A stretch of DNA of 64,000 nucleotides, taken from the NCBI GenBank assembly GCA_041946735.1, contig JBHGAY010000001.1:1-64000 (forward strand). The letters are read 5' to 3'. Shown here piece after piece: positions 13,041 to 27,401 of the stretch. Under the pieces are notes generated by a model. The model worked only from the letters and a program-made list of their open reading frames with translations, had not been told where the DNA came from and did not search any database. The stretch comes from Candidatus Eiseniibacteriota bacterium. Its GTDB lineage: Bacteria; Eisenbacteria; RBG-16-71-46; CAIMUX01; VGJL01. Positions within the stretch are counted from its first letter, which is position 1. The number at the start of each line of letters is the position of its first letter. A program made the translations under genes and the position numbers.

Positions 13041-14171
13041 TTATTTGGCGGCGGCCTTCCCGCCGTAGATTTCGAGGAGGCGATCCACGTGTCCGTCGAG
13101 ATCGCGGGACGGTGGGGCGCCCTTGCTGTACTGGCATTCGGCGCACGCCCGGATCGACGCCCGGTTGCCGGTCAGATGCGCGAGGCGGATCGCGCGAAGC
13201 GGCTCGCCTCCCCACACCTCCTCGAGCGTCTGCGTCCTCAGATCCCCGACGATCGTGCCATAGCTCCAGTCGACGCAGCAGATCGAGACCTGACCGTCCC
13301 AGTTGATCGCGAGACGCGAGAACGGCTCGGGGCAGACCTGCCGCTCGCGGAGAGGGGAGGAGCCGTCCATGCCGGTCGTCACCTGCACGCCAAGCGTGAA
13401 GTCCTTCACATCGGAGAGCGACCAGCCCATCATCGTGTCGATCGCAAGCAGATCGGCGATCGAGGAGTAGTCGCGCTCGAACCGCTCCTTGTGCTCGGCC
13501 GTCAGCCCGCTGTCGTTCGTCTTCACGATGACGCGCAGCGGGCTCCCGCGACGCCGCTTCTCGTGATAGAGGAACGCGACGTTCTCGAGGATCCGCTGGT
13601 AGGGGACCTTCGTCTGGGTGAGCTCCTGAAACGTCTTCTCCTCCACGTGGACGACGGAGATCCGGATCTGGTCGAGCCCGGAATCGATCAGGCGCGAGGC
13701 CAGCTCGCGCGTCAGCAGCGAGCCGTTCGAGGTGGTCGAGACGACATGAGCCACCTGCGCCTTCTTCGCGTACGCCGCCATCTCCGGGAGGCGCGGGTTG
13801 AGGAGCGGCTCTCCGTCCTTGTACAGGTGGAGGGTGGAGAGCTTCCTGCCGGCGCGCTGCACCATGGCGTGCAGGTCGTCGACGATCCGCACGTAGAGGT
13901 CGTAGTCCATCACCCCGTTGGGCCGTCCCACGGACTTCAGCAGCCCCTTGTCCGCCGTCGGACAGAACGAGCAGCGGAAGTTGCAGAGATTGACCGGATC
14001 GAGATGGATCGTCTCGGGGAGCGGCAGCGGAAGCATCTCGTGCAGCGGCCGGACGTGGGTCTTTCGGTACGCGTTCATTCGTCCGCGGATCGAGTGCGGC
14101 AGGCGGTGGTAGACACGCCTCAGGAGGCCGCGGACTCTCGGACGAACCTGGCCATCGCCGGAAAGGAACAT
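13041..14171 (-). CDS. Radical SAM / SPASM(twitch)-domain protein
   Basis: CNFRCSFC, DGEPLLNP, C-terminal CPEPF..GQVSICC..CAEC; GGAGG SD before ATG 14171. Confidence 0.9.
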   Translation of the reverse strand: MFLSGDGQVRPRVRGLLRRVYHRLPHSIRGRMNAYRKTHVRPLHEMLPLPLPETIHLDPVNLCNFRCSFCPTADKGLLKSVGRPNGVMDYDLYVRIVDDLHAMVQRAGRKLSTLHLYKDGEPLLNPRLPEMAAYAKKAQVAHVVSTTSNGSLLTRELASRLIDSGLDQIRISVVHVEEKTFQELTQTKVPYQRILENVAFLYHEKRRRGSPLRVIVKTNDSGLTAEHKERFERDYSSIADLLAIDTMMGWSLSDVKDFTLGVQVTTGMDGSSPLRERQVCPEPFSRLAINWDGQVSICCVDWSYGTIVGDLRTQTLEEVWGGEPLRAIRLAHLTGNRASIRACAECQYSKGAPPSRDLDGHVDRLLEIYGGKAAAK

Positions 14172-14267
14172 CGTGCCTGCACCTCCTCGGGCCGACGACC
14201 AGGATAGCATGCCGGCCGGAAAGGTGATAGAATTGCCTCGCTTCTGACGCTGCCTTCGCTCCGCAGG

Positions 14268-14310
14268 CGAGTGGGCGGGGTCGGTCGAACGAGTGGGCGG
14301 GGTCGGTCGA
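14268..14310. repeat. Two exact 21-bp direct repeats (CGAGTGGGCGGGGTCGGTCGA), 22-bp period
   Basis: Copies at 14268-14288 and 14290-14310 in the divergent intergenic region. Confidence 0.85.
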
Positions 14311-14336
14311 GCGAGGTCGGGAGCCGAGGAGAGGCC

Positions 14337-15365
14337 ATGGCGAGCAGCATCGCACGTCACGCGGAGAGCGCGCTCACATTCGAGGTGAGCGACTCGGTCG
14401 CGATCGACGAGTGGGAAGAGATCGCGCGCCGCTGCACATGGGCGACGTTCTTCCACACCCCGCGCTGGCTCCGCGCGTTCGAGCGAGCCCTGCCCGGCCT
14501 TCGCATCGCGACGAAGCGGTTCCGCTTCGCGGACGGCGTCACCGCCATCTTCCCGCTGATGTCGCACAGCCGTGCGATGGGGTTGCATCGCGGTTACATG
14601 AGCACGGCGGCGTGCTGCTACGGCGGCCCGATCTCCGCCGATCCGCTTTCTCCGTCCCACATGGAGGAGATCGCGCGCGCGGTGCTCCATGCCTGCCCGA
14701 ACCTGTTCTGGCGCCTGAACCCGCTCCAGCCCGGGCAGGAGGCGCTCGCCCCCTTCGTGACGGAGTCCGATTCGACCGAGATCCTCGACCTGCGCTCGAT
14801 CGAGAGCATCGAGGAGCTGCGGATGCATTACCGCCACAGCGTCCGCAAACAGATCAACAAAGGATGCCGCGCCGGGCTGCGCGCGGTCGAGGCGGCCGAG
14901 TGGCCGGACTGGGAAGCGTACTACGCGCTCTACGAGAAGCGCCTCGAGCAGTGGGGAGACCAGGCGACGAGCCGCTATCCGATCGCGCTGTTCCGTGAGC
15001 TGTACGAGGCGCGCGGCGCGGGGGTCAAGCTCTGGCTCGCCTACCAGGAGGATCGCCTGATCGGCGGCAACCTGAACTTCTACCACGGGCGGCACTGCGT
15101 CGAATGGCACGCCGCCTACGATTGCGACTTCTTTCCCTGCGGCGTGCGCGACTTCCTGGTCGACTGGATCGTCCGCGACGCCCGCGAGCGCGGGGCGTTC
15201 CTCTACGACTTCAATCCGAGCGGCAATCACGAAGGATCGCGCCGCTTCAAGCAGACCTTCGGCACGACCACCTACGGGTCCGACCTGATCGTGCAGCGCT
15301 CCGCCGTCTCCCGTCTCGCTCAGGCCTGCCGGAACTACGGCAGGCAGGCGCGGAGCTCGGCCTGA
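14337..15365 (+). CDS. GNAT / FemAB-like acyltransferase
   Basis: ATFFHTPRWL, YGGPI, SVRKQINK, YDFNPSG..GSRRFKQTFG; SD GAGGAG. Confidence 0.85.
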   Translation: MASSIARHAESALTFEVSDSVAIDEWEEIARRCTWATFFHTPRWLRAFERALPGLRIATKRFRFADGVTAIFPLMSHSRAMGLHRGYMSTAACCYGGPISADPLSPSHMEEIARAVLHACPNLFWRLNPLQPGQEALAPFVTESDSTEILDLRSIESIEELRMHYRHSVRKQINKGCRAGLRAVEAAEWPDWEAYYALYEKRLEQWGDQATSRYPIALFRELYEARGAGVKLWLAYQEDRLIGGNLNFYHGRHCVEWHAAYDCDFFPCGVRDFLVDWIVRDARERGAFLYDFNPSGNHEGSRRFKQTFGTTTYGSDLIVQRSAVSRLAQACRNYGRQARSSA

Positions 15366-15462: not shown

Positions 15463-15981
15463 ATGCCGGCGGAGGAGGAACCTCGCATGGAGGGATCGCA
15501 CGGAAAGAAACCGAAGGACGCCGCGCGCAAGCCGCGCGCCGCCCGGCGCTCCGCCCCACGGGCGCGACGCGGAGGTGAGGAGCCGCGGGCGGTCGTCACT
15601 CCCGTCTTCGGCGAGGCGCCGCTGCCGCCGCCGCTCGAGCCGTTTGCGCTCGGTGTGACGTATCTCGCCGGCTTCCAGCATCACCATGGGATGCACCCCA
15701 AGGTGCTCGCCCGCCTGGAGCCGGGGCTCGTCCTCACGCTCGTCCGGGAACCGGGAAATCCTCACGATCGCTTCGCGATCGCGGTCTACACCCCCGAGGG
15801 CGCGCGGCTCGGCTATCTCCCGCAGGGATGCAACGCGCCGATCGCCTGCATGATCGACGGAGACGTCACCGTCCGCGCGGCGATCCACGAGGTGCACCCC
15901 GAGGAGCAGGCCTGGAAGCGCGTCTCGGTTCTGCTCTGGATGATGATCCCCGCGCCGTGTCCGGGGCCGTCGGAGAACTAG
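15463..15981 (+). CDS. HIRAN domain protein
   Basis: LAGFQHH..LTLVREPGNPHDRFAIAVY..LGYLP; basic N-terminal extension; alternative start 15487. Confidence 0.88.
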   Translation: MPAEEEPRMEGSHGKKPKDAARKPRAARRSAPRARRGGEEPRAVVTPVFGEAPLPPPLEPFALGVTYLAGFQHHHGMHPKVLARLEPGLVLTLVREPGNPHDRFAIAVYTPEGARLGYLPQGCNAPIACMIDGDVTVRAAIHEVHPEEQAWKRVSVLLWMMIPAPCPGPSEN

Positions 15982-16034: not shown

Positions 16035-17567
16035 TTACGCGGGCGGGCTCCCCGGCGCGGAATCGGCGAGGGTGATGGCGCAGTCCATTTCGAGGACGAA
16101 GCGACCGCGGCGAACCGGGACGAGCCGCACCTCCGGGCACTTCTGCGCGAGACGTTTGCGGAGCAGGATGAGCCGGCTCTCGAGGTTGTCTTTGATCGGC
16201 GGCAGACCGAGGGAGGGATCGAGGCGCAGCTCGCGGTTGGTGAACTCGTTGCGCCCCTCCTGCCGGCTCACGTTCAGGAGCTTCCAGAGAATCTTCCCCG
16301 GCACGTTGCGCACGAGGTACTCGCCGTCGACGAACACCGAGTCGTCGCGCGCGTCGTAGGCGAAGGTGCGGCGTTGCTGCGTCTCCCCCGGCTGCGTCTC
16401 CCCCGGCTGCGTCTCCCCCGGCTGCGCCCCCGCGGCCGACGAACCCGCCGGCTCGGCGCCGTCGCACGGCGCCTCCTCGTCGGCCGCCTGCATGCGGTCG
16501 ATCCCCATCGCGATCTGGTTGCCGAGGATCTGCAGGAACGCCTCGTCCCATTCGTCGAAGCAGAGCGGGTCACGGCTCTCGACCGACAGCACCCCGACCA
16601 GGCGATCGCCCGCGAGAAGCGGAAGCGCGAGCAACGCCTGGGCGTCCGGCAGGCCGGGCAGCGGGATCTCCGGCGACAGGCGATCGCACTCCTCGCCGCG
16701 CTCCTCCACGCGCCCGCGGATCGCCCGCCCATAGCGCAGCGCGCTTTCCATCCCGGCGACGCGGATCATCCGGCGGTGTTCCGCCACCGTCCCGAGGATG
16801 CCCTCGCCGATCGCCACCTCCGCGCCGATGCCGTGCGGGCCGTAGCCGCGCATCGCGATCGCGACGAGCCGTCCGCTCTCCTCCTGCGGGACCAGGATCA
16901 TCGAGTGGGAGAAGCCGAGCAGCTCGTCGAGCGCGGCGAGCGCTCCGGCGAGCAGCCCTTCGAGATCCCGGGCGCGGGCGATCCTCTCCGAGACCACGTG
17001 AACGCCGCGAAGCTCGGTCAGCGGCCCGGCCGGCAGCGGCTGGGGCTGCGCGTCGAGCACCGGATCCGGCGGGAGCAGGAAGCGCTCGACCGGCTCGATC
17101 GCGAGGACGTCGTAGACGTCGGCCGAGAGGAGCTTGAACACCCCCGCCATCCCGGTGTGCGAGGCGATCACCTGGATGCGCATCGCCATCGTGTCGAACA
17201 GGGGACCGTCGTACTCCGAATGATCGAACCTAAGTCGCAGCCGCCATGCCTCGAAGGTCACCGGATGGAAGGAGATCACCGTCGCGTAGGGGTTCCCGGC
17301 AATGTTCCGCCGGGTTTTGTTGAAGAACTGGCACGACAGCGCCAGGCGCTTCGGATCGACGTAGTAGACCTGAGAAATATAGGTGACGTTCGGCTCTCCG
17401 TCCGCCGAGCAGGTCGCGATGATCGAGGGGACGATCCCCTGAAAGCAGGGAAGGAGATCCTCCAGCCGGCCCGCGGCGTGCGGCGCGGCTGCGGAGGCCG
17501 CCGCGGTCGGAGCCCCCGCCGGAGAGGACGGCACGGACTGATACGACGGCTGCGCCGGTTCGCTCAA
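16035..17567 (-). CDS. PNPOx-like (FMN-binding split barrel) + GAF + C-terminal winged-helix-like putative transcriptional regulator
   Basis: ATCSADGEPNVTYISQ..FFNKTRRNI.GNP; GAF-like GEGILGTVA..LALPLL..LVGVLSVES..FDEWDE; C-terminal GKILWKLL..FTNRELR..NLESRLILLRKRL..RGRFVL; TTG start overlaps upstream TGA. Confidence 0.8.
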   Translation of the reverse strand: MSEPAQPSYQSVPSSPAGAPTAAASAAAPHAAGRLEDLLPCFQGIVPSIIATCSADGEPNVTYISQVYYVDPKRLALSCQFFNKTRRNIAGNPYATVISFHPVTFEAWRLRLRFDHSEYDGPLFDTMAMRIQVIASHTGMAGVFKLLSADVYDVLAIEPVERFLLPPDPVLDAQPQPLPAGPLTELRGVHVVSERIARARDLEGLLAGALAALDELLGFSHSMILVPQEESGRLVAIAMRGYGPHGIGAEVAIGEGILGTVAEHRRMIRVAGMESALRYGRAIRGRVEERGEECDRLSPEIPLPGLPDAQALLALPLLAGDRLVGVLSVESRDPLCFDEWDEAFLQILGNQIAMGIDRMQAADEEAPCDGAEPAGSSAAGAQPGETQPGETQPGETQQRRTFAYDARDDSVFVDGEYLVRNVPGKILWKLLNVSRQEGRNEFTNRELRLDPSLGLPPIKDNLESRLILLRKRLAQKCPEVRLVPVRRGRFVLEMDCAITLADSAPGSPPA

Positions 17568-18034
17568 CGGCTGGCACCCCCGAGAGCGGCGCCCGCCCCC
17601 GGCCCGGGCGTCTGCAAGAAGATGCCGTCCACGTGCAGGCGCACCGCGTAGCACGGCCAACAGTTCATCCGGAGCGTCAGTCGCGGCGGAATTCCGATGA
17701 AGCCGAACGCTTCGGCGAGCGCGGCGCGATAGCGTTGCACGATCCGGCGGTCGTCCTCCCCGCCTTCGCGGATCGAAACCACCTGCCCCTTGAGCTGCAG
17801 CGAGCGGTGGTCGCGCGCCCTGGAGAAGCAGACGGCGATCCTGCCGTTGCTCTTCACGTTCTCGACGTTCCCCTCGCCCGTCGCGGCCGGGAGGAAGACG
17901 GTCAGCTCTTCGCCGTCGTCTTCGACGCGCGCGCCGACGGCGCGGCAGCAGTCGGGGAGCAAACGGTCGCTGCGCGTCCCGACCAGGATCGAGACGCCCG
18001 ACTGCAGGTATTCCGCGTGTTCGAGAAGGTTCAT
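17564..18034 (-). CDS. Small PNPOx-like FMN-binding split-barrel protein
   Basis: SILVGTRS..PDCCRAVG..ENVKSNGRIAVCFSR..HRSLQLKG..FLQTPGPGAG; translationally coupled to the downstream regulator. Confidence 0.75.
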   Translation of the reverse strand: MNLLEHAEYLQSGVSILVGTRSDRLLPDCCRAVGARVEDDGEELTVFLPAATGEGNVENVKSNGRIAVCFSRARDHRSLQLKGQVVSIREGGEDDRRIVQRYRAALAEAFGFIGIPPRLTLRMNCWPCYAVRLHVDGIFLQTPGPGAGAALGGASR

Positions 18035-18198
18035 TGGTCGGCTCTCCAGAACGGGGCATCGTAGACGCGGCGGCCGCGATCGGCAACAGAGGATCCCGGG
18101 AACGTGCGGGCGAGCGCGAACCCGAAGAACGTTCGGACCTTGCGAAGCCTGCCGCGCGGCCGACCGCGCCGGACGCTCGAAGCCGACCGGATCGTTCT

Positions 18199-20760
18199 CT
18201 AGAACTTGTCCTGCGACACGATCAAGGTTGCGGTCGCGACGTGCTCGTCCTGCGGATCCTTGATGTGGAAGGTGCGGATCGCGTGGTCGAGCTTATGCGT
18301 CGAGAGGGCGGGATGCGCGAGGGACCCGTCCTTCTCGAGCACCTCGTCCCTCGTTTCCGCCTCGATGATCAGCTGGAAGGCGTCGACGCCCGTGCGCCAC
18401 TGGATGATCTCCCCGGGATGGACGGCGTAGCAGTCCTCGCTGGCGATCTGGAGAACGCCGTCCTGGTCGTACACGAGGATCACGTTCTCCTTGGCGGTCT
18501 TGTTGTACTGCGGCGGCGGCGGCGGTGTCGGCGGCGCCGGTGGCGGGGTCGGCGGCGGTGCCGGACCGCTCCCTGGCGGGCGCTTCGCCTCCGGAGGTCC
18601 CTGCTTGCCTCCCTTCCCGAACGGTTCCGTTCCCATCACGTCCTCCTTCTCACGCTCACGGTCGGATTCCACGGACGGCTCGTAGCGTCGCAGCAGAGCC
18701 GCGACCTCTTCGGACTGCACACATTCGCGGAACGCTCGGTCCCGGCGCAGCGCGGACGCGCGGAAGCCGAGCTTCAGCGCCGCCTCCATGTGGGCGAGGC
18801 ATCCCTCCCGGTCCCCCGTCTCCCAGCAGACCGAGGCGGCCGACACTTCGACGTCGACCCAGCCGCCTCCGAGCGAGAGCGCCCGTTGGATGCGAAGGCG
18901 CGCGGCCGTCCTGTCGCCCACTTCTAGGTACAGCTCGGCGAGCTGCGCGAGCACGACCGCGTCGCGCGGGTTCTCGGCCGCCGCCGCTTCGGCCAGCTCG
19001 ATCGAGCGCAGGAAGGCGTGGCGGGTTCGCTCCGGGTCCCGGCCGAGCACGAGCAGCGTGAGCGCGAGCGCCTTCCAGACGAGGAAATCATGATCCTGCA
19101 GGCGCAACGCCTCCTCGAGCACCTCGACCGCCTCCTCGGGGCGGTCGGTATCGCGGTAGAGCGAGGCGAGGTTGCAGAGCGCGGCGTAGTTCGGGCGGAT
19201 CGCTTGCGCGGTGCGGTACGCCTCGATCGCCTCGCCGATCCGCCCCTCGTATTGCAGCGCGGCGCCGAGGTCGGAGTAGCTGCGCGAGTCGTCCGGAGCG
19301 CGGTCGACCGCGTCGAAAATGTGGGCGATCGCCTCGGCCATGCGGCCGCGGCGCAGGCAGAAGCGACCGAGGACGGCGTGCGTCTCCGCCCAGTCGGATC
19401 GCTGCCGCACGCATCGCTCCAGCTCCGCCTCCGCTTCCTCGTAGCGTCCGGCGCTCTCGAGCGAAAGCGCGTGACCGATGCGGGCGGGCACCCAGGAGGG
19501 ATCCTGCTCGAGCGCCTCGCGGAAGGACGCCTCCGCCAGCTCCGTCCTCCCGGTGTGCCGCTGCGTCGTCCCCATGGCGGTGAGGACGGCGGCGGAGCTC
19601 GGATCGATCGTGTGCGCCCGCAGCGCTGCTTCCTCGGCCTTGTCCTTCCAGCGGTCCTCGTGCGTCTCCATATGGCGGGCCCACCAGGTTTCGGCGAGAC
19701 CGGCCCAAGCGACGGCGAGATCAGGATCCTCCCGAAGCGAGCGCTCGAAGAGACGCTCCGCATCGAGGAGATTCGCTTCCGTGCGGGGGCGCTCGAGGTA
19801 GCGCAGTCCCTGCAGGTAGAAGTCGCGGGCGCCGGGCGCCGCCGCGCGCGGCGACGATCCGCGCCACGGCGTCTCGCCATAGACGAGCGAGCGCAGGTCG
19901 CGGAGCGAGGCGGCCGCGGGGCGGGCGCGCGGGTCACGGTCGAGCAACGCGTGGACGATCCGCGCGAGCGAAGCGGGAACGGCAGGGATGATCGAGCGGA
20001 TCGCGGGCGGCTGCGCGCGCAGGATCGCATCGCGCGTCTCGGGGATCGTCGGGCGGAAGAAGGGATGCCGGCCGGTGAGCATCTCATAGAAGACGAGACC
20101 GAGCGCGAAGAGATCGGCTGGAGGGGCCGGCGCATCGCCGAGGATCCGCTCGGGAGCCATGTACGCCGGCGTCCCTCCGAGACGCGGCTCCCCCTCCGAC
20201 TCCGTCGGGTCCGCCGCGCGCTCCGCCGCGTTCGCCGTTTCACCGGAAGGACAGGAGGGCTCCGGCGCCCAGCGATAGGCGAAGCCGAAGTCGAGGAAGT
20301 GCGGGCGCCCCTCACGGTCGACGAGGATGTTCTCCGGCTTCACGTCGCAGTGCACGATTCGCTGCGCGTGGGCGGTTGCGAGCGCAGCGAGACACTCCTC
20401 CGCGAACGGGTAGAAACGCTCGAGCGGCCATGCCTGGCCGAGATGCGCGCGGAGCGTGGGACCGTCGACCCATTCGGTGACGAGGACCGCTTCCCCTTCG
20501 TGCTCGAGGATGTCGTAGGTGGCGACGATGGCGGGATGGCGAAGCGTCGCGCCCGCGCGTCCCTCGTGAAGCAGGCGCCGCGCCCGCTCCCGCAAATCCT
20601 CGTTGCCGGGGCGAAGCCGCTTCAGGGCAACGTCGCGGCGCAGCCCAACGTCGAAGGCGCGGTACACGTCCCCGGTGCCCCCCGCGCCCCGGTGTTCGCG
20701 GACCTCGTACCGGCCGATCGCGCGGCCGGTCCAGTCCGCCGACGGCGGCTGGGAATCCAT
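18199..20760 (-). CDS. Hanks-type Ser/Thr protein kinase with TPR repeats and C-terminal Pro-rich/beta domain
   Basis: GAGGTGDVY, VALK, HCDVKPEN, DFG, GTPAYMAPE, DLFALG; multiple TPRs; no transmembrane segment. Confidence 0.92.
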   Translation of the reverse strand: MDSQPPSADWTGRAIGRYEVREHRGAGGTGDVYRAFDVGLRRDVALKRLRPGNEDLRERARRLLHEGRAGATLRHPAIVATYDILEHEGEAVLVTEWVDGPTLRAHLGQAWPLERFYPFAEECLAALATAHAQRIVHCDVKPENILVDREGRPHFLDFGFAYRWAPEPSCPSGETANAAERAADPTESEGEPRLGGTPAYMAPERILGDAPAPPADLFALGLVFYEMLTGRHPFFRPTIPETRDAILRAQPPAIRSIIPAVPASLARIVHALLDRDPRARPAAASLRDLRSLVYGETPWRGSSPRAAAPGARDFYLQGLRYLERPRTEANLLDAERLFERSLREDPDLAVAWAGLAETWWARHMETHEDRWKDKAEEAALRAHTIDPSSAAVLTAMGTTQRHTGRTELAEASFREALEQDPSWVPARIGHALSLESAGRYEEAEAELERCVRQRSDWAETHAVLGRFCLRRGRMAEAIAHIFDAVDRAPDDSRSYSDLGAALQYEGRIGEAIEAYRTAQAIRPNYAALCNLASLYRDTDRPEEAVEVLEEALRLQDHDFLVWKALALTLLVLGRDPERTRHAFLRSIELAEAAAAENPRDAVVLAQLAELYLEVGDRTAARLRIQRALSLGGGWVDVEVSAASVCWETGDREGCLAHMEAALKLGFRASALRRDRAFRECVQSEEVAALLRRYEPSVESDREREKEDVMGTEPFGKGGKQGPPEAKRPPGSGPAPPPTPPPAPPTPPPPPQYNKTAKENVILVYDQDGVLQIASEDCYAVHPGEIIQWRTGVDAFQLIIEAETRDEVLEKDGSLAHPALSTHKLDHAIRTFHIKDPQDEHVATATLIVSQDKF

Positions 20761-20768
20761 GCGGAAGG

Positions 20769-20797
20769 ATCGTAGTCCCGGCGCGGGCGCCCGGCAA
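20769..20797 (-). promoter_or_regulatory. Putative sigma70 promoter TTGCCG-N17-TACGAT, 8 nt before the kinase ATG (near-leaderless)
   Basis: Consensus-like hexamers with canonical spacing; no SD before the ATG. Confidence 0.55.
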
Positions 20798-20987
20798 CGC
20801 GGAGCAGGCGGGGTGGGCGGTCGCCTCGCGGGTCCGCAGGCGTCGGGCAGGCGGGGTGGGAGGCGGGCTTGGCGCGCCGGGGCGGCAGCCCATACGCCGA
20901 AAGCCCGGGAGCGGCGCGACCGCCGCCCCCGGGCCCCTGTCGGGAAACCCTCGCGGACCTCTGCGGGCCTCGCGCCGACGCCTTCGC

Positions 20988-21662
20988 CTACTGCTTGCCG
21001 CCGGCCGGCGGGATCGGCTCCGGCACCTTGTTCTTGATCGGCGGGATCGACTGCAGGTAGGTGAAGACCGCGTGCAGGTCGTCATCGGTCAGCGCGGCGA
21101 GGTTGAAGTACGGCATGGGGGGCAGGATCGGCCGCCCGCGGCCCTGATGCCGCCCGGACTTCATCGTCGCTCGGAAGTCCGCTTCGGTCCACTTTCCGAG
21201 GCCGGTGTCCGGATCGGGCGTCAAGTTCGCCGGAAAGCTCACGCCCCACGGCCCGGACCACGCGGTCATCGTCGCCGAGGCCGTGATCGCCCATGGGGCC
21301 TTCGACGGGTCGATCGCGGGAGCAGCCGGCATCTTCAGATCCTGGGGATGCCCGGAGAGCATCCGCGTCATGTCCATCTCCGGACCGTTCTGCCCCATCT
21401 TCCACGGGGTGTGGCAATCGTTGCAGCCCATGATGCTGACGAGGTACTCGCCGCGTTTCACCACGTCGGCGTTCGACGCGGCCGCGCCGCCAGCCGCGCC
21501 CTGCGCTTGCGCCGAGCCGGGTCCGCCGATCGTGAGCGCAACGACGGCGACGGTCAGGACGAATGTGCAGGCGGCACCCAACGCGTAGACCTTCCGGTCG
21601 CCAAGACGCCCGCGGACGCGGCCGCCGAGGCGGCCGGCATCACCGACACGCAGATCGTTCAT
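20988..21662 (-). CDS. Exported mono-heme c-type cytochrome
   Basis: Signal/TM segment; RGEYLV..GCNDCHTP, PWGVSFPANLTPD.DTGLG.W, PPMP; ATGA overlap with upstream gene. Confidence 0.9.
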   Translation of the reverse strand: MNDLRVGDAGRLGGRVRGRLGDRKVYALGAACTFVLTVAVVALTIGGPGSAQAQGAAGGAAASNADVVKRGEYLVSIMGCNDCHTPWKMGQNGPEMDMTRMLSGHPQDLKMPAAPAIDPSKAPWAITASATMTAWSGPWGVSFPANLTPDPDTGLGKWTEADFRATMKSGRHQGRGRPILPPMPYFNLAALTDDDLHAVFTYLQSIPPIKNKVPEPIPPAGGKQ

Positions 21663-22864
21663 CGACTTCCATCCTCCGTTCCATGCAGTTTCGTGAAAGT
21701 TTCGACGTCCCGCGGGCCGAGGTCGTCGCGAATCCATCCTCTGATCAGCGCCACGGCCACGGAGTCGACGAGGTTCGTGCCGAGGGGAGGCATCTGGAGA
21801 AGTGGCTGGCGGGAGGACATCCTCGTCACGACGAGGCTCTTGTCCGGATTTCCCGCCGCGATCCTCCACGAGTACGCCTCGGGATCGGCGGACGGCTGGT
21901 AGCGGCTCGCGCGGCTCACCGCCGTGAAGAGCGCCCTCGCCCGGGTCCCCTTGACGGCGCCGAGCGAATACTCGAGCGAGAGACCGAGCTGCGCGAGCGG
22001 CCCCGACTCGTTGTGACAGATCCCGCAGTTCGCGCTGAGATATCCCAGCGCGGCGCGCTCGCGCGGCGTCGAGGCCTCGACGCGCGGCGGGTGGCTGACG
22101 AGGTCCTCGGGCAGTCCCGCGATCCATCCCCGGTCCACGAACCCCTTGAGATCGAGCGCGCCGGGAAGCGGGGTCTGCTGGTGGGGCGCCATAGGGTCTC
22201 GATCGCTGGAGAGCTGGAGCGCCGTGAAGCCGAGGATCCTTTCCGGACGCCCTTCGTGGCAGGCGAGGCAGTCGTACCGGCTGGGGATGTCATGGCCGAC
22301 GCCCGGCGCGATCCCGACGACCGAGCGGATTCCCTGCTCCGGCGCGAGGACCGCGTCGGTCCCTTCCGCATTCCACCGGTAGGCGAAGTACATCCACTCG
22401 CCGTTGTCGCCGCGTGTGATGAAGCGTGTCTCGACCGGCCGCCCGTCGAAGGAGAACTCCTTCCAGAAGCGCGTGCCGATCGGGAACTGCCAGTGGTCGG
22501 GGTCGGACGCATCGATGTGCGTGCCCGGCGGAATGTGAACCCAGCGCCGCTTCACGGCGCCATCGCTCCACAGCGGGTACTGCGGCTCGTAGGAAATGTT
22601 CTCCTGCGCGACCGTTCTCGTCGCCGGATCGGAGTAGAGCCCCGTATCGGCGAGCCGCGCCGGCGCGGCGTCCGTCGCCGGCCCAGCGCTCGATCCCGAA
22701 GCGACATCGGAACCCGACGCCAGGCCGGCGGAGGAGCGGGGCACCGCCGCGAGGAAGGTCGCCACGGCGGCCAGCAGCGCGAACGCGAGGATCCATCCGA
22801 GCGGACTGCCCGCTCGCCGGTGCGTTCGCAGCCTCGGCCCTACTCTCGTCCCTTCCCGCAACAT
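21659..22864 (-). CDS. Exported di-heme c-type cytochrome (SO2930-like)
   Basis: CLACH and CGICH; PLWSDGAVKRRW, FPIGTRFWKEF, VETR, QMPPLGT; start chosen at ATG 22864 with GGAG/GAGGT SD. Confidence 0.88.
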   Translation of the reverse strand: MLREGTRVGPRLRTHRRAGSPLGWILAFALLAAVATFLAAVPRSSAGLASGSDVASGSSAGPATDAAPARLADTGLYSDPATRTVAQENISYEPQYPLWSDGAVKRRWVHIPPGTHIDASDPDHWQFPIGTRFWKEFSFDGRPVETRFITRGDNGEWMYFAYRWNAEGTDAVLAPEQGIRSVVGIAPGVGHDIPSRYDCLACHEGRPERILGFTALQLSSDRDPMAPHQQTPLPGALDLKGFVDRGWIAGLPEDLVSHPPRVEASTPRERAALGYLSANCGICHNESGPLAQLGLSLEYSLGAVKGTRARALFTAVSRASRYQPSADPEAYSWRIAAGNPDKSLVVTRMSSRQPLLQMPPLGTNLVDSVAVALIRGWIRDDLGPRDVETFTKLHGTEDGSR

Positions 22865-22904
22865 CGCTCTCACCTCTCCGCCGGCCTTGCCTTCCGGGTC
22901 GTCT

Positions 22905-22939
22905 CTCTCCAACGACTCTCCAACGACTCTCTCCAACGA
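22905..22939. repeat. Three copies of CTCTCCAACGA
   Basis: 22905-22915, 22916-22926 and 22929-22939, between the hemerythrin and cytochrome genes. Confidence 0.75.
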
Positions 22940-22952
22940 TCGAGAAGCAGGA

Positions 22953-23579
22953 TCAGGCAAACGTCGCTTCGCGCATCGACGCGGGGATCGTCTCGTACAG
23001 CTCGGCCGGCAGAAGCTTCTGCAGTCCGGCGAGGAATCCCGCCCGCTCCACCGGGCTGATCTCCGGCAGCAGCGCTCCCGCCCAGCGGGTCAGCGCGAGC
23101 GGCTCGATCGACCGGAGGATCGTCACGCGCATCGCGATCAGCTCGTCATCGGTCTTGTGGGCGCGCAGGAGGCGGTTCGCCACCGTCTCCTCGCGCTCCA
23201 TATGGAGGAGGTGCTCCGCGGCGAGGCGTCCGAGCTTCTCGTGCAGCCGGGCGCCCAGCGACTCGCGCTCGGTCCCTTCCGATGCGATGACGCGGTCGAG
23301 AAGCTGGCCGATCTCGGTCTGCAGCCCGCCGATCCTCAAGTGATCGCCGTGGAGATCGGCGTAGACGGCAGGGCCGAGCTTCTCGACCTCGGGGAAGATC
23401 ACCGCGTCCTCGGCCCGCGCGTGCTCCTCGAGCAGCTCGAGGAGCTGCCTCACGGCGAGGACGACCCGCTGCGTGGACTCGGAATCGCGGTAGTCGGCCC
23501 GCGCGGCCTCGCGCACCGAGTCGAACAGGGCGGCCCGGATCCCCTTGTGCACCGTCGTGAAGAGATCATTGCGTGCCAT
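22953..23579 (-). CDS. Hemerythrin-like (HHE) domain protein
   Basis: VHKGIR, EEHARAED..IFP, GDH, HLLHMEREE; AAGGAGG SD. Confidence 0.9.
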   Translation of the reverse strand: MARNDLFTTVHKGIRAALFDSVREAARADYRDSESTQRVVLAVRQLLELLEEHARAEDAVIFPEVEKLGPAVYADLHGDHLRIGGLQTEIGQLLDRVIASEGTERESLGARLHEKLGRLAAEHLLHMEREETVANRLLRAHKTDDELIAMRVTILRSIEPLALTRWAGALLPEISPVERAGFLAGLQKLLPAELYETIPASMREATFA

Positions 23580-23649
23580 GCGTCGCTTCCTCCTTCTTGC
23601 TCTTGCTTCGTCCTGCGTTTCTTTCGCGCCTGTGTGGCTTCGAAAGCGC

Positions 23650-23749
23650 AGGTTAGGGGGAAGCGAGTCGGAGCGGTTCCTAAATGGTCCCTTGCGAATC
23701 CCTAAGAGTTTCCTAACCGGAGAGTTTGTTGACCGGCAGGACTTCCTAA
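23650..23749 (-). promoter_or_regulatory. Promoter with -10 TAACCT and phased TTAGGAA boxes (putative winged-helix activator sites)
   Basis: On +: TTCCTAA 23677, TCCCTTG 23688, TCCCTAA 23699, TTCCTAA 23710, TTCCTAA 23743, all offsets multiples of 11; AGGTTA at 23650-23655. Confidence 0.65.
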
Positions 23750-23871
23750 CCGGGCGGGGAGTTTCGAGGACGGGGTGCGGGTACCGAACGGGCTGCTGTC
23801 GTGGGAAAGCGGCGCATACGCGGCAAGGGGACCGCCTCCGGATGGAGACGGTCCCCCTTCGCTCACGGCGC

Positions 23872-23943
23872 CACGCGCTGCGCCGCGACTGCACCCACAC
23901 ACTGCGCCGCTGCCGCACTCATGCGCTGCGCCGCGACTGCGGA
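23872..23943. repeat. Three imperfect 24-bp tandem repeats (CACGCGCTGCGCCGCGACTGCACC-like)
   Basis: Intergenic; read directly from the sequence. Confidence 0.7.
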
Positions 23944-23978
23944 CACCCGCCTGGGCGGCTCGGGCCCGCCGCGTGCGA

Positions 23979-26900
23979 TCACTCGTCGAGGACGACGACC
24001 CTGCGCCCGGCTCCGCCGCGCGACGTCTCGACGCGCGCGAGGTAGATCCCCTTCGCGACGCGGCGGCCACCGTCGTCGGTCAGGTCCCACGAGATCGCCT
24101 GCTCTCCGGCCGGGAACGCGCCGTCCGCAAGCGTCCGCACCTCGCGCCCGCTAACGTCGTAGACGGTCAGGCGAACATCGCCGGGCTCGGGCAGATCGAA
24201 GACGAGCGGCGCGCTGCCGCGGGCGGGATTGCGCCCCGCGAGACGGAGCGTCACGCCGCCGGCCGCTCCGTGCTGCGTCGACGGCCAGCCATCGACGACG
24301 TCGCTCGGCACCGCGTCCAGCCTGCGCACGTCGGTCTCGTGCTGCCCGTTGCCGGCCGGTGTGAACCACGGCGAGTACGGAGCCCACCGCGACCCGCTCC
24401 TCACGCGCAGCCGCCAGTGATGTCCCTCCCCCAGGTCCAGGTCGTTCACGAGCATGCTGAAGATCTCGCGGCTTCCCCAGCCCCCGGCGGGGCTGCCCGT
24501 GTCGAACCATCCTCCCTGGATCAGATTCGAACCGTCGAAGGGAACGCCGGCCGGCTCGATCTCGTATTGGACGCTGACGTACTCGCGTCCCATCGGATGC
24601 CGAGCCCAACCTTGCAGGCGGAACCCCTCCGGCCCGACGCGACCGCGGAGCGGAATCGTCTGGCCGCTCGTCGGGTGGATCTGATGGACGAGCCGCTCCG
24701 GACCGACATGCCCGCTCTGGTGGAAGACGAGAACCTTCGGGACGTTGTCGTTGTCGCAGGTCTGACGCACGAGCGCGACCTCCGGACTGCCGTCGCCGTC
24801 GACGTCCCCCCAGGCCGCCATCGCCTGGCCGATCCGCGCGCGGCTCGAAGAGCCGGTGTAGAGCCAATCGGGCGCCGTCGGTCCCGGGAACGGAGCGAGG
24901 AAGAGCTGGACCTGGCCGAACTTCGGGTAGAAAAGGTCGCCGTAGTCGAACCACGGAGCGCCGACGAGCAGGTCGCCGAGGCCGTCGCCGTTGACGTCGC
25001 CCACGCCGCTCACGCGAGCCCCGAAGGCGTCCGTATCATTGCCGCCCGCGCGGCTCCAGATCAGCTGCGCCGTGCCGGCGGCCGTCCCCTTGTAGACGTG
25101 AATCCATCCAAGCTCGTAGGCCTCGAGCCAGCCGCGGCCGGGAGCGCCGGCGACGAAGTCGCTGCGCCCGTCGCCGTTCACGTCCCCGAGGCCGGCGACG
25201 CTCGCGCCGAGGAATCCCTTGTCCGCGGTGCCGAAGACGTGCCAATCGGAGATCGAGTCCGGCTCGGCGCCGCCGAGGAAGAGATCGATCCGCCCTGCGG
25301 TGATGCCGTTGTTCGTTGCCAACGGAGTGCCGACGACGACGTCGTCGTAGCCGTCGCCGTTGGTGTCGCCCGCGCAAGCCACCGACCACCCGAAGCGCGC
25401 GTACGGGGAGGAGACGTGCGCGGCGAACGCTTCGGTCAGCCCGTTCGGTCCGCCCAGGTAGAAGTGCACCCGTCCGTCGTCGTAGTCGAAGAGCGGCTCG
25501 CCGACGACCACGTCCGCGTAGCCGTCGCCATTGATGTCGCCGGCCGAGGAGAGGCTGACCGCGAACCCTTCTGCCTGGCCTTCCAGCACCATCGCGGGCT
25601 CGGCGGCGAGCCCATCCGGCCCGCCGTGGAAGAGATGCACGAATCCGGGATAGTCCGGGTCGCCGTTCGCCGCATAGGCGGGAGATCCGATCAGTAGATC
25701 CTCGTAGCCGTCGCCGTTGACGTCGCCCGCCGTCGAGAGCACGCCGCCGAACTCCTTCACGCCGGTCGGGTCGTAGGTCCAGTCCGGCGAATCGGACAGT
25801 CCCGCGTGGCCGCCATAGAACGCCTCCGCGTGTCCGGTCCAGTACACGCCCCAGTCCGGATCGCCCACGGCGAGATCGCTGAAGCCGTCGCCGTTCCAAT
25901 CGCCGAGAGCCGTCTCGACTCCCGCCGTGATGGCCGGATCGCGGACGAGGCCGGTCCAGCTCCATTGCGGTGTCGCTGGAAGCCGGCGCGCGCTGCCGTA
26001 GTAGCCGAAGACGCGCCCTTCGTCCCCTTCTCCGGCGTCGAAGGAGTAGGCGCCGATGACGAGATCGCTGCGGCCGTCGCCGTCGACGTCCCCCGCGCCG
26101 CTGACGCTCGCGCCGAAGTAGGCGTTCGCCTGGGCGCAGATGTACTGGCGGGCAGCGTCCGGACCGTCCGGGCTGCCGAGGTAGACGAGGACGAGCCCTT
26201 CGTTCGGCTCGTAGTACTGGTAGGTGCTCGCGCCGATGGCGAGGTCGGCGTAGCCATCGCCGTCGACGTCGCCGGCCGGCGCCACGCACGCGCCGAACGC
26301 GCCGCCCGCCTGGTCCCCCTCGTAGGTCCAGGATGCGGTCGCCTGCGGACCGTTGGCGCCGCCTCGGAAGATGTGCACACGCCCCTCGTCGACCTGGCCG
26401 TGATCCTCGTTCATCGCCCCGATCGCGACCTCGCCGTAGCCGTCGCCGTCCATGTCGCCGACGCCGCAAACCGAGCCCCCGAAGAAGGCGCTCGCCTGGT
26501 TGCTCTCGACGCGCCAGGCGGGATCGATCGCGAGTCCGAAGAGACCGCCGAGGTAGACGATCGCGCACCCCTCGCCCGACTGGCCGTTGGTCCAGGTCGG
26601 GGCGCCGGCGACCACGTCATCGAACCCGTCGCCGTTGACGTCCCCCGCCCACGCGACGCTCGCTCCGAACCAGCAGTTCGCGACGTTCGACTCGCGCGTC
26701 GTCGACGGCTCCTGGGGCAGGCCGTAATGGGATCCGTAGTAGAGCAGGACGGCCCCTTCGTTCTGCGAGCCGTTGTCGTAGCGAGGGGCGCCGATCGCGA
26801 CGTCGTCCAGGCCGTCCCCGTTCACGTCGCCGACGCCCGCGATCGCGGTGCCGAAGCCGGAGTAGGCCTGGTTCGACTCGACGCTCCAGTCCGGCGTGGA

Positions 26901-27401
26901 GGACGGCCCGTTCGCATGGCCGAGGAACAGGTCGACGCGCCCTTCCTCCGTCTCGCCGTTGGCGTACTTCGGGGAGGAGACGAGCAGGTCGTCGAAGCCG
27001 TCGCCGTTCACGTCCCCGGCGGCGGAGACGACCGCACCGAAGCGGGAGGAGTTCTGAGAGCCGTGCGCCGTCCATGCCGGTTGCGAGACGAAGCCGTTCG
27101 GGCCGCCGTAGTAGAGGCGGGCTCCACCGAGATCGAGGAGCATGCCGTGCTCCCAAGGGGAGCCGACGATCACGTCGCCGTAGCCGTCGCCGTTCACGTC
27201 GCCGGCCGCGGCGACCGATGCTCCGAAGGCCGCGCCTTGCACCGGTCCGGTGGCCGTCCAGTCGGGCATCGGATCGGGATCGAGGGCTTCCGCGCGCTCT
27301 GCGCCGCCGAACGCCATGAGCGCCACGAGCGAAGCGATCGCGGCGAGGAGCGCGCTTCTCCAACGCCGCAGTCGATCGAGTTTCCTGCCAGTCCGCTGCA
27401 T
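23979..27401 (-). CDS. Secreted FG-GAP (integrin-alpha-like) repeat protein with C-terminal FlgD-Ig-like domain
   Basis: More than ten FG.SV..AGDVNGDG..D..VGAP repeats; C-terminal NP..YDVSGREV..WD.TD..GIYLARV; AAGGAGG SD before ATG 27401. Confidence 0.93.
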   Translation of the reverse strand: MQRTGRKLDRLRRWRSALLAAIASLVALMAFGGAERAEALDPDPMPDWTATGPVQGAAFGASVAAAGDVNGDGYGDVIVGSPWEHGMLLDLGGARLYYGGPNGFVSQPAWTAHGSQNSSRFGAVVSAAGDVNGDGFDDLLVSSPKYANGETEEGRVDLFLGHANGPSSTPDWSVESNQAYSGFGTAIAGVGDVNGDGLDDVAIGAPRYDNGSQNEGAVLLYYGSHYGLPQEPSTTRESNVANCWFGASVAWAGDVNGDGFDDVVAGAPTWTNGQSGEGCAIVYLGGLFGLAIDPAWRVESNQASAFFGGSVCGVGDMDGDGYGEVAIGAMNEDHGQVDEGRVHIFRGGANGPQATASWTYEGDQAGGAFGACVAPAGDVDGDGYADLAIGASTYQYYEPNEGLVLVYLGSPDGPDAARQYICAQANAYFGASVSGAGDVDGDGRSDLVIGAYSFDAGEGDEGRVFGYYGSARRLPATPQWSWTGLVRDPAITAGVETALGDWNGDGFSDLAVGDPDWGVYWTGHAEAFYGGHAGLSDSPDWTYDPTGVKEFGGVLSTAGDVNGDGYEDLLIGSPAYAANGDPDYPGFVHLFHGGPDGLAAEPAMVLEGQAEGFAVSLSSAGDINGDGYADVVVGEPLFDYDDGRVHFYLGGPNGLTEAFAAHVSSPYARFGWSVACAGDTNGDGYDDVVVGTPLATNNGITAGRIDLFLGGAEPDSISDWHVFGTADKGFLGASVAGLGDVNGDGRSDFVAGAPGRGWLEAYELGWIHVYKGTAAGTAQLIWSRAGGNDTDAFGARVSGVGDVNGDGLGDLLVGAPWFDYGDLFYPKFGQVQLFLAPFPGPTAPDWLYTGSSSRARIGQAMAAWGDVDGDGSPEVALVRQTCDNDNVPKVLVFHQSGHVGPERLVHQIHPTSGQTIPLRGRVGPEGFRLQGWARHPMGREYVSVQYEIEPAGVPFDGSNLIQGGWFDTGSPAGGWGSREIFSMLVNDLDLGEGHHWRLRVRSGSRWAPYSPWFTPAGNGQHETDVRRLDAVPSDVVDGWPSTQHGAAGGVTLRLAGRNPARGSAPLVFDLPEPGDVRLTVYDVSGREVRTLADGAFPAGEQAISWDLTDDGGRRVAKGIYLARVETSRGGAGRRVVVLDE

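Follow-up and report, generated by a model that had tools for sequence, protein, structure and literature searches.

A predicted split-barrel, GAF and winged-helix regulator and its putative TTAGG operator upstream of hemerythrin and cytochrome genes

The window analyzed here is a stretch of 64,000 nucleotides at the start of contig JBHGAY010000001.1 from a Candidatus Eiseniibacteriota bacterium (assembly GCA_041946735.1), and position numbers refer to this whole window unless another contig or locus is named. Our subject is a putative regulatory system within six minus-strand open reading frames at 16035-23579, whose presence was established from open-reading-frame calls and from scans with Pfam and NCBIfam profiles. 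In the order of their transcription, we call the six genes HEM, DIH, MONO, KIN, BAR and REG (Table 1). The original prediction for this DNA described six co-oriented minus-strand genes with the heme motifs CLACH, CGICH and CNDCH and with ATGA and TTGA gene overlaps, and all of these are present, the TTGA being the overlap of BAR and REG. One contig of sequencing run X1, a possible source of this DNA, spans 16397-25000 with zero differences, and runs X2 and X3, which come from two other studies, contain pieces of the kinase gene and its neighbors. On this evidence, the gene order did not arise through misassembly. It is unlikely that all six genes form a single operon, since KIN is flanked by spacers of about 230 and 160 bp, each with a TACGAT hexamer shortly 5' of the next start codon. 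A scan of the locus with the sigma-70 consensus found no promoter, and no minus-strand terminator was found there.

Table 1. The six genes and the predicted regulatory elements, with their positions in the window.
Feature	Positions	Strand	Description
HEM	22953..23579	-	208 aa; Pfam Hemerythrin, E 1e-9; first target gene; no evident signal peptide
DIH	21659..22864	-	401 aa; CLACH and CGICH; SO2930-like diheme c-type cytochrome; N-terminal hydrophobic segment
MONO	20988..21662	-	CNDCH; monoheme cytochrome c; ATGA overlap with DIH; target gene
KIN	18199..20760	-	Pkinase and TPR; Ser/Thr kinase
BAR	17564..18034	-	small predicted HupZ/COG3576-like split barrel; QxKG and QTPGPxAG motifs
REG	16035..17567	-	split barrel ~35-165; GAF ~181-365; low-complexity linker; predicted OmpR/PhoB-type winged helix ~397-503
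operator, predicted REG binding site	23675..23717	-	four direct repeats, 11-bp period
additional TTAGG copy	23745..23749	-	33 bp before the array's first box
-10-like hexamer TAACCT	23650..23655	-	28 bp from the last-box start; no consensus -35

The N-terminal domain of REG matches PNPOx_N (PF01243) at 34.2 bits, which is over the cut-off, and has the split-barrel fold in the model of the full protein (mean pLDDT 77, pTM 0.42), which also shows the GAF domain. Among structures, this barrel matches FMN-binding Swol_0183 (Z 16.5, rmsd 4.8, 138 aligned), HupZ (Z 14.4) and FMN-bound YviC (Z 13.9), and the heme-binding proteins HupZ and HutZ are both among its nearest. Fold searches with the whole protein return mainly matches to the GAF domain. 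When folded alone with AlphaFold, the C-terminal domain reaches a pLDDT of 93.9, and the model has an N-terminal sheet, three helices and a C-terminal hairpin, i.e., a winged-helix fold. Its best structure matches are BaeR (Z 10.5, rmsd 2.5, 95 aligned), GlnR (9.4), AdeR (9.2) and PhoP (8.8), followed by VanR, CpxR and CadC, and the top 18 rows are all of the OmpR/PhoB type. The predicted recognition helix is nearly invariant among relatives. At the sequence level, this domain has no meaningful Pfam or PDB match, and PF00486 (Trans_reg_C) matched none of the 61 REG family members scanned. The C-terminus had been described earlier as winged-helix-like and DNA-binding, and the AlphaFold model and structure matches refine this to a predicted DNA-binding winged helix of the OmpR/PhoB type.

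This fold would place REG with OmpR/PhoB regulators such as PhoB, PhoP, BaeR, GlnR and AdeR, with one-component CadC and ToxR/TcpP, and with SARPs such as AfsR. Unlike these regulators, however, REG has no receiver domain, cognate histidine kinase or membrane anchor; the receiver's place is taken by the barrel and GAF domain, which together with a separate partner barrel would form the input. No recurring histidine kinase family was found among the neighbors in the first 80 loci of our survey (L001-L080; see below). A REG-type regulator would work like an OmpR/PhoB activator, yet is not a two-component response regulator. A GAF domain upstream of the output is shared with NifA/Nlh and CodY, of which CodY also combines GAF with a winged helix, but REG lacks an AAA+ domain, its winged helix is of the OmpR rather than the CodY type by Z score, and the barrel is an extra input. 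We rejected the label "adenylate cyclase" for REG-type proteins, as none of 25 proteins scanned contains a cyclase domain. Proteins of about 300 aa with GAF and winged helix but no barrel were also observed (P0200, P0203, P0207 and an Atlas cluster with 389 members); they may be split forms, as in locus L118, or a barrel-free subfamily.

At least 5889 of 8000 scored candidates are relatives of REG. Named records come from Eisenbacteria, Planctomycetota, Acidobacteriota, Myxococcota and Pseudomonadota; the closest are Candidatus Eisenbacteria records, and two genomes of the same family show the same loci. REG occurs in 10 of 151 genomes of its own phylum and in 14 of 401 in the phylum of an Amaricoccus record (G151). 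For the family of G393 and the order of G388, with 301 genomes each, the counts are 57 and 14. We examined 168 loci, namely the best 80 of 239 from a genome collection, 20 more, 8 annotated plasmid records out of 20 matches, and 60 others; six match places on short contigs were left out, and L081-L092 were removed as duplicates.

In 157 of the 158 loci that extend 550 bp or more beyond the start of REG, BAR lies directly upstream, and the two are sometimes fused, in line with the earlier pairing of the two genes. Fusions with BAR at the N-terminus make up 7 of 150 listed representatives (629-660 aa; one, P0132, is doubtful, as part of the BAR tail is missing). A Tibeticola-type fusion cluster has 27 members, with lengths of 657-663 aa in 13 of the 15 listed, and is seen in many assemblies; clean in-frame fusions occur in five genome loci. 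The original prediction took both proteins to be split barrels. For REG, profile and fold agree; BAR itself has weak profile matches (PNPOx_N, E 9e-4 and 20 bits, under the 28.1-bit cut-off; HupZ and COG3576, E 0.006-0.007), and is paralogous to the REG barrel (hhalign, 94.5%). The conserved motifs of the two barrels do not overlap: F[NSG]KTxxN is found in 127 of 156 REG barrels, while KTxxN is in none of 154 BAR sequences; QxK[GASR] is in 144 and [QE][TS]PG in 153 of the 154 BAR sequences, while QxKG is in none of the 156 REG barrels. From an alignment with Swol_0183 and from general knowledge of the fold, we take the KTxxN, QxKG and PG motifs to be FMN-binding. Motifs divided in this way fit one cofactor site shared between the two proteins, as far as sequence patterns can indicate, and the cofactor would more likely be FMN than heme.

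Both barrels resemble HupZ, YviC, Swol_0183 and COG3576 weakly in sequence and also in fold, which for BAR is a prediction, and BAR has the HupZ-type C-terminal tail pattern. HupZ is a stand-alone homodimer and a proposed heme chaperone (PMC9237417, PMC11602992). Here, unlike HupZ, there are two diverged paralogues with non-overlapping motifs, one of them fused to a GAF and a DNA-binding domain. It is nonetheless conceivable, if improbable, that BAR acts independently of REG, as a flavoenzyme or cofactor chaperone that is merely co-transcribed with it, that the REG barrel forms homodimers and that the true ligand binds the GAF domain. Characterized split barrels, HupZ included, are homodimers (PMC9237417), the barrel-free proteins mentioned above exist, and the GAF domain shows strong conservation and similarity to GAFs that bind ligands (PtsP, Z 21.3; fRMsr, Z 20.6). 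What speaks for a pair instead is the near-perfect coupling, the fusions and the divided motifs, together with the recurrence of both barrels before a different output: at L112:6342-9732, BAR and a free REG-type barrel precede a gene for a GAF, sigma54-type AAA and Ser/Thr kinase protein. Since the pair is found there ahead of another output, the two barrels travel together, and on the evidence of gene order the pair is used with other outputs. A barrel-GAF-kinase fusion was also seen (P0155).

The original prediction did not mention the operator upstream of HEM. Its boxes are TTAGG words starting at 23716, 23705 and 23683 and a degenerate CAAGG at 23694; counting the additional copy farther upstream, the TTAGG words 5' of HEM are spaced by 33, 11 and 22 bp. 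A period of 11 bp is also that of pho boxes. We built an operator matrix, with -10 columns included, from 52 sites in L001-L080, leaving out the window. In its own 4.9-Mb genome, this matrix finds a single site of at least 12 bits, which is the HEM operator (59.3 bits), whereas the maximum among 40 shuffled loci is 2.7. In 45 of the 52 sites, a hexamer of the form NAnnnT begins at an offset of 27 or 28 bp from the last box, versus 0-2 at each other offset from 18 to 34. With the full matrix, no further regulon members were found in this genome. A looser unit model gave 25.0 for a short tandem repeat of AGGGAA/AAGGAT words at about 24870-24960 (minus strand) of contig C16 and at most 18.8 elsewhere in the genome; we did not count any of these sites. 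A second MONO-type cytochrome c gene, at C45:15221-15856 (minus strand) of the same genome (G000), is 51% identical, has a lipoprotein-like N-terminus and is without an operator.

For a wider comparison, we used a flexible four-box model with a threshold score of 18 on loci of at least 9 kb. This score is reached in 120 of the 138 long loci versus 1 of 168 shuffles; among the Pseudomonadota loci, which did not contribute to training, 64 of 75 reach it. The array appears to be conserved across at least five phyla and precedes the leading target gene, whichever this is, on the same strand; it faces the target whether the layout relative to BAR-REG is co-oriented, divergent or convergent. Tandem direct repeats with a period of one turn near target promoters are a trait of OmpR/PhoB-like sites that these loci share, by association, and we predict that the operator is the binding site of REG.

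PhoP likewise uses tandem direct repeats next to the -35 position, in complexes with 2, 4 or 6 subunits, and tandem OmpR/PhoB dimers or tetramers activate from such arrays, where sigma region 4 loses its place on the -35 element (PMC11825685). By analogy, the same displacement may take place at the TTAGG array. Boxes at a fixed 27-28 bp and the lack of a consensus -35 fit dependence on an activator. It is doubtful that REG is instead a repressor, bound to the array at rest and released by the signal, or that BAR is an anti-activator that holds REG off the array. The boxes do abut the -35 position, and anti-factors are often co-translated with their partner, as BAR is with REG; moreover, OmpR/PhoB proteins such as PhoP can repress (PMC11825685). 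However, the boxes do not cover the -10 and start site but precede them, at the fixed spacing and without a consensus -35, and in-frame BAR-REG fusions suit a structural partner more than a releasable inhibitor.

The original prediction tied the regulator to hemerythrin genes, and the conserved operator provides such a connection. In a 301-genome sample, HEM is present in 53 of 57 REG-positive versus 24 of 244 REG-negative genomes. Of 40 HEM genes linked to REG, 38 have the array in front of them, compared with 4 of 13 unlinked copies in REG-positive genomes (initially 5 of 14, one of which proved to be linked), and 1 of 26 copies in REG-negative genomes, with a borderline score of 18.9. The four unlinked positive sites suggest that REG could act in trans. 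In REG-negative genomes, a MONO-type cytochrome gene (about 300 aa) lies beside HEM in 14 of 26 loci (L197-L215 among them). This pairing indicates that HEM plus cytochrome is an effector pair in its own right, and these loci look like a second, operator-free regulatory setting for it. Some of the REG-negative HEM loci are near LuxR-, LysR- or STAND-type genes, and glutathione S-transferase genes adjoin HEM in L204 and L205.

Within the fetched stretches of the 168 loci, HEM is found in 95, a MONO-type gene in 64, DIH in 36 and all three in 26, so the hemerythrin linkage expected earlier holds across phyla. The cytochromes, which the original prediction included in the system, are not general members: among 83 Pseudomonadota loci, DIH, a target gene outside this phylum, is in none and a MONO-type gene in 7. 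The order HEM-DIH-MONO-BAR occurs in 17 loci, the closest relatives included, and the aligned parts of MONO and BAR are 74-265 bp apart there. The kinase, also included earlier, does not hold its place: no kinase lies between MONO and BAR in any of the 168 related loci. KIN is therefore likely a local insertion between the target operon and the BAR-REG unit, and a bystander. That KIN belongs to the system and phosphorylates REG or BAR seems very improbable to us, even though it sits inside the cluster on the same strand and P0155 and L112 show barrel-GAF modules in combination with Ser/Thr kinases. The 17 kinase matches at other loci are only 29-40% identical and cover only the kinase domain, and the genome is rich in KIN paralogues (27 tblastn hits).

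The first gene behind 134 operators is HEM in 82 cases, DIH in 13, MONO in 12, a flavin monooxygenase (FMO) in 6, an ODP di-iron protein in 5, a lipoprotein-like family in 3, an FAD oxidase, YceI and an arylamine N-acetyltransferase (NAT) in one each, and another gene in 10. Weaker arrays below the threshold face cupin-NAT-YceI genes in Rhizobium etli CFN42 and, in L167, a series of sulfotransferase, cytochrome and FAD oxidase genes. Genes for TPP-dependent E1 alpha and beta subunits recur in target operons; the pair follows HEM or other operator-led genes in L098, L100, L133, L164, L165 and L217, and no E2 gene was seen beside it within the stretches checked. A membrane protein of about 130 aa with no Pfam match lies behind the operator or HEM in L130, L139, L179, L184 and L185, and L133 has a possibly related membrane protein with a weak COX1 match.

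In profile searches, the best PDB match of HEM is FBXL5 (E 1e-9). Its conserved residues are H11, H53, E57, H80, H126 and E130/E131; the four ligand His and the Glu are conserved in 91-94 of 94 sequences, whereas no Asp is conserved in the final helix that carries ligands. Another His is found in 73 of the 94, but not in HEM of the window. At the sequence level, HEM thus has not the O2-carrier set of five His, Glu and Asp but the four His and two to three Glu of the FBXL5/YtfE-type four-helix bundle (ligand sets as in PMC6993866). These ligands are shared with the FBXL5 hemerythrin domain, YtfE/RIC and mycobacterial hemerythrin-like proteins. HEM differs from FBXL5 and YtfE in being a stand-alone bacterial protein with a C-terminal extension, and the RIC profile gives 20.5 bits against a cut-off of 204.7. 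DIH matches NCBIfam TIGR03806 over positions 2-312 of 314 with 169 bits (cut-off 313.3); two CxxCH motifs are present in 32 of 34 DIH sequences, and no PDB relative of DIH was found. MONO corresponds, as a protein of its own, to the first heme domain in the cytochrome subunits of membrane dehydrogenases (8hdd_B, E 3e-26). The genome of the window encodes cytochrome c assembly proteins (four matches over the PF01578 cut-off).

What the switch might sense can be approached through these targets. One possibility, which we regard as rather unlikely, is that the same switch is a dedicated sensor of gas, redox state or iron, in which a heme or flavin detects O2, NO, peroxide or iron and a di-iron scavenger is induced along with periplasmic cytochromes. 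Two unrelated di-iron folds, HEM and ODP, do occur at the first target position (82 and 5 of the 134 operators); ODP is an O2 sensor in Treponema (PMC7666581), and mycobacterial hemerythrin-like proteins have catalase activity and interact with NO (PMC6993866). Heme-binding HupZ and HutZ being among the nearest barrel structures would also suit such a sensor, as would an ASH-type His in 104 of 156 REG barrels, but this His is not invariant, and HEM lacks the O2-carrier ligands. Moreover, the target genes for FMO, NAT, sulfotransferase, FAD oxidase and TPP E1 do not belong to gas detoxification, and in REG-negative genomes HEM stands beside glutathione S-transferases and LysR/LuxR-type regulators. 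From the di-iron targets one would expect a redox or gas signal, from the monooxygenase and transferase targets a reactive organic compound, and we slightly prefer the latter. A reactive or xenobiotic small molecule takes the largest share of our expectation, somewhat short of half; O2, NO, peroxide or iron status takes a smaller share, and other signals the smallest. Our confidence in any particular signal is low.

We consider it probable that BAR and REG together form one phosphorylation-independent, cofactor-gated activator that acts at the TTAGG array and responds to a redox-active or reactive small molecule. BAR likely pairs with the N-terminal barrel of REG, building a flavin-type cofactor site, and the signal likely alters the state of this cofactor. 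The change would be relayed through the GAF domain of REG. For the winged helices of REG, we predict head-to-tail binding along the four 11-bp repeats. Bound REG would recruit RNA polymerase to the HEM-DIH-MONO promoter, and the target genes would serve detoxification. The computations establish the gene coupling, the fusions, the fold, the operator, its constant distance from a -10-like element and its dependence on REG, while the heterodimer, its cofactor, the choice of activation over repression and the GAF relay are inferred. Our confidence is high for the regulator and its operator, and moderate for the heterodimeric cofactor sensor.

It is important to emphasize the points that weigh against this reading. 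Foldseek ranks the OmpR/PhoB family first for the C-terminal domain of REG, but with a best E of 0.02, and alone yields no winged-helix match at E <=0.001; the best winged-helix Z of 10.5 is only moderately over the background of 7-8 quoted for the tool. The fixed -10 spacing was counted in the same 52 sites that trained the matrix, and the matrix included the -10 columns. In 18 of the 138 long loci the operator model stays under the threshold, 9 of the 13 unlinked HEM copies in REG-positive genomes have no operator, and HEM is present in the 24 REG-negative genomes noted above, which shows, together with the operator-less unlinked copies, that HEM also occurs apart from this switch. Because of relatedness among the sampled genomes, the counts overstate independence. 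In addition, the assignment of the barrel motifs to FMN rests on family resemblance and general knowledge of the fold.

The original prediction knew of no characterized regulator with this architecture, and our literature searches, which excluded supplements and most subscription journals, likewise found no description of a barrel-GAF-winged-helix protein or of the R. etli locus. In two split-barrel surveys (10.1101/2024.11.13.623527, PMC11602992), term searches found neither GAF nor hemerythrin. BAR-REG and its operator constitute a real, widespread and apparently uncharacterized regulator-operator system. More tentatively still, they may define a widespread bacterial regulator class, in which an obligate heterodimer of two diverged split barrels with a single cofactor site between them is a flavin sensor, coupled to an OmpR-type activator invisible to Pfam and a TTAGG operator, with detoxification as its role, an FBXL5-like protein as the commonest effector, and a barrel pair reusable with other outputs, Ser/Thr kinases among them. 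If this is true, thousands of proteins labeled "GAF domain-containing protein" or "adenylate cyclase" would be transcription factors, regulons could be read from genomes via the known operator, and a split-barrel heterodimer acting as a sensor would give the PNPOx fold a new role. The operator is a ready reporter for finding the signal, which in turn would help to reveal the function of the bacterial FBXL5-like di-iron protein, the ODP subfamily and the two orphan cytochrome families. Harmless, tractable hosts for studying BAR-REG include Anaeromyxobacter and R. etli CFN42, whose BAR-REG locus is RHE_RS24895/RHE_RS24900.

Some minor features of the window are recorded for completeness. The spacer between HEM and DIH contains a 13-bp unit repeated about three times (22905-22940), and the linker of REG contains three repeats of a PGETQ unit (16380-16425). 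Upstream of the operator is a gene for a large FG-GAP repeat protein with a FlgD-like tail (23979-27400, minus strand), and on the other side of the locus a HIRAN-domain gene (15463-15981, plus strand) is convergent with REG. Beyond the latter, 13041-15365 holds a radical-SAM-like open reading frame with a CxxxCxxC motif and a divergent one that appears GNAT-like by eye.

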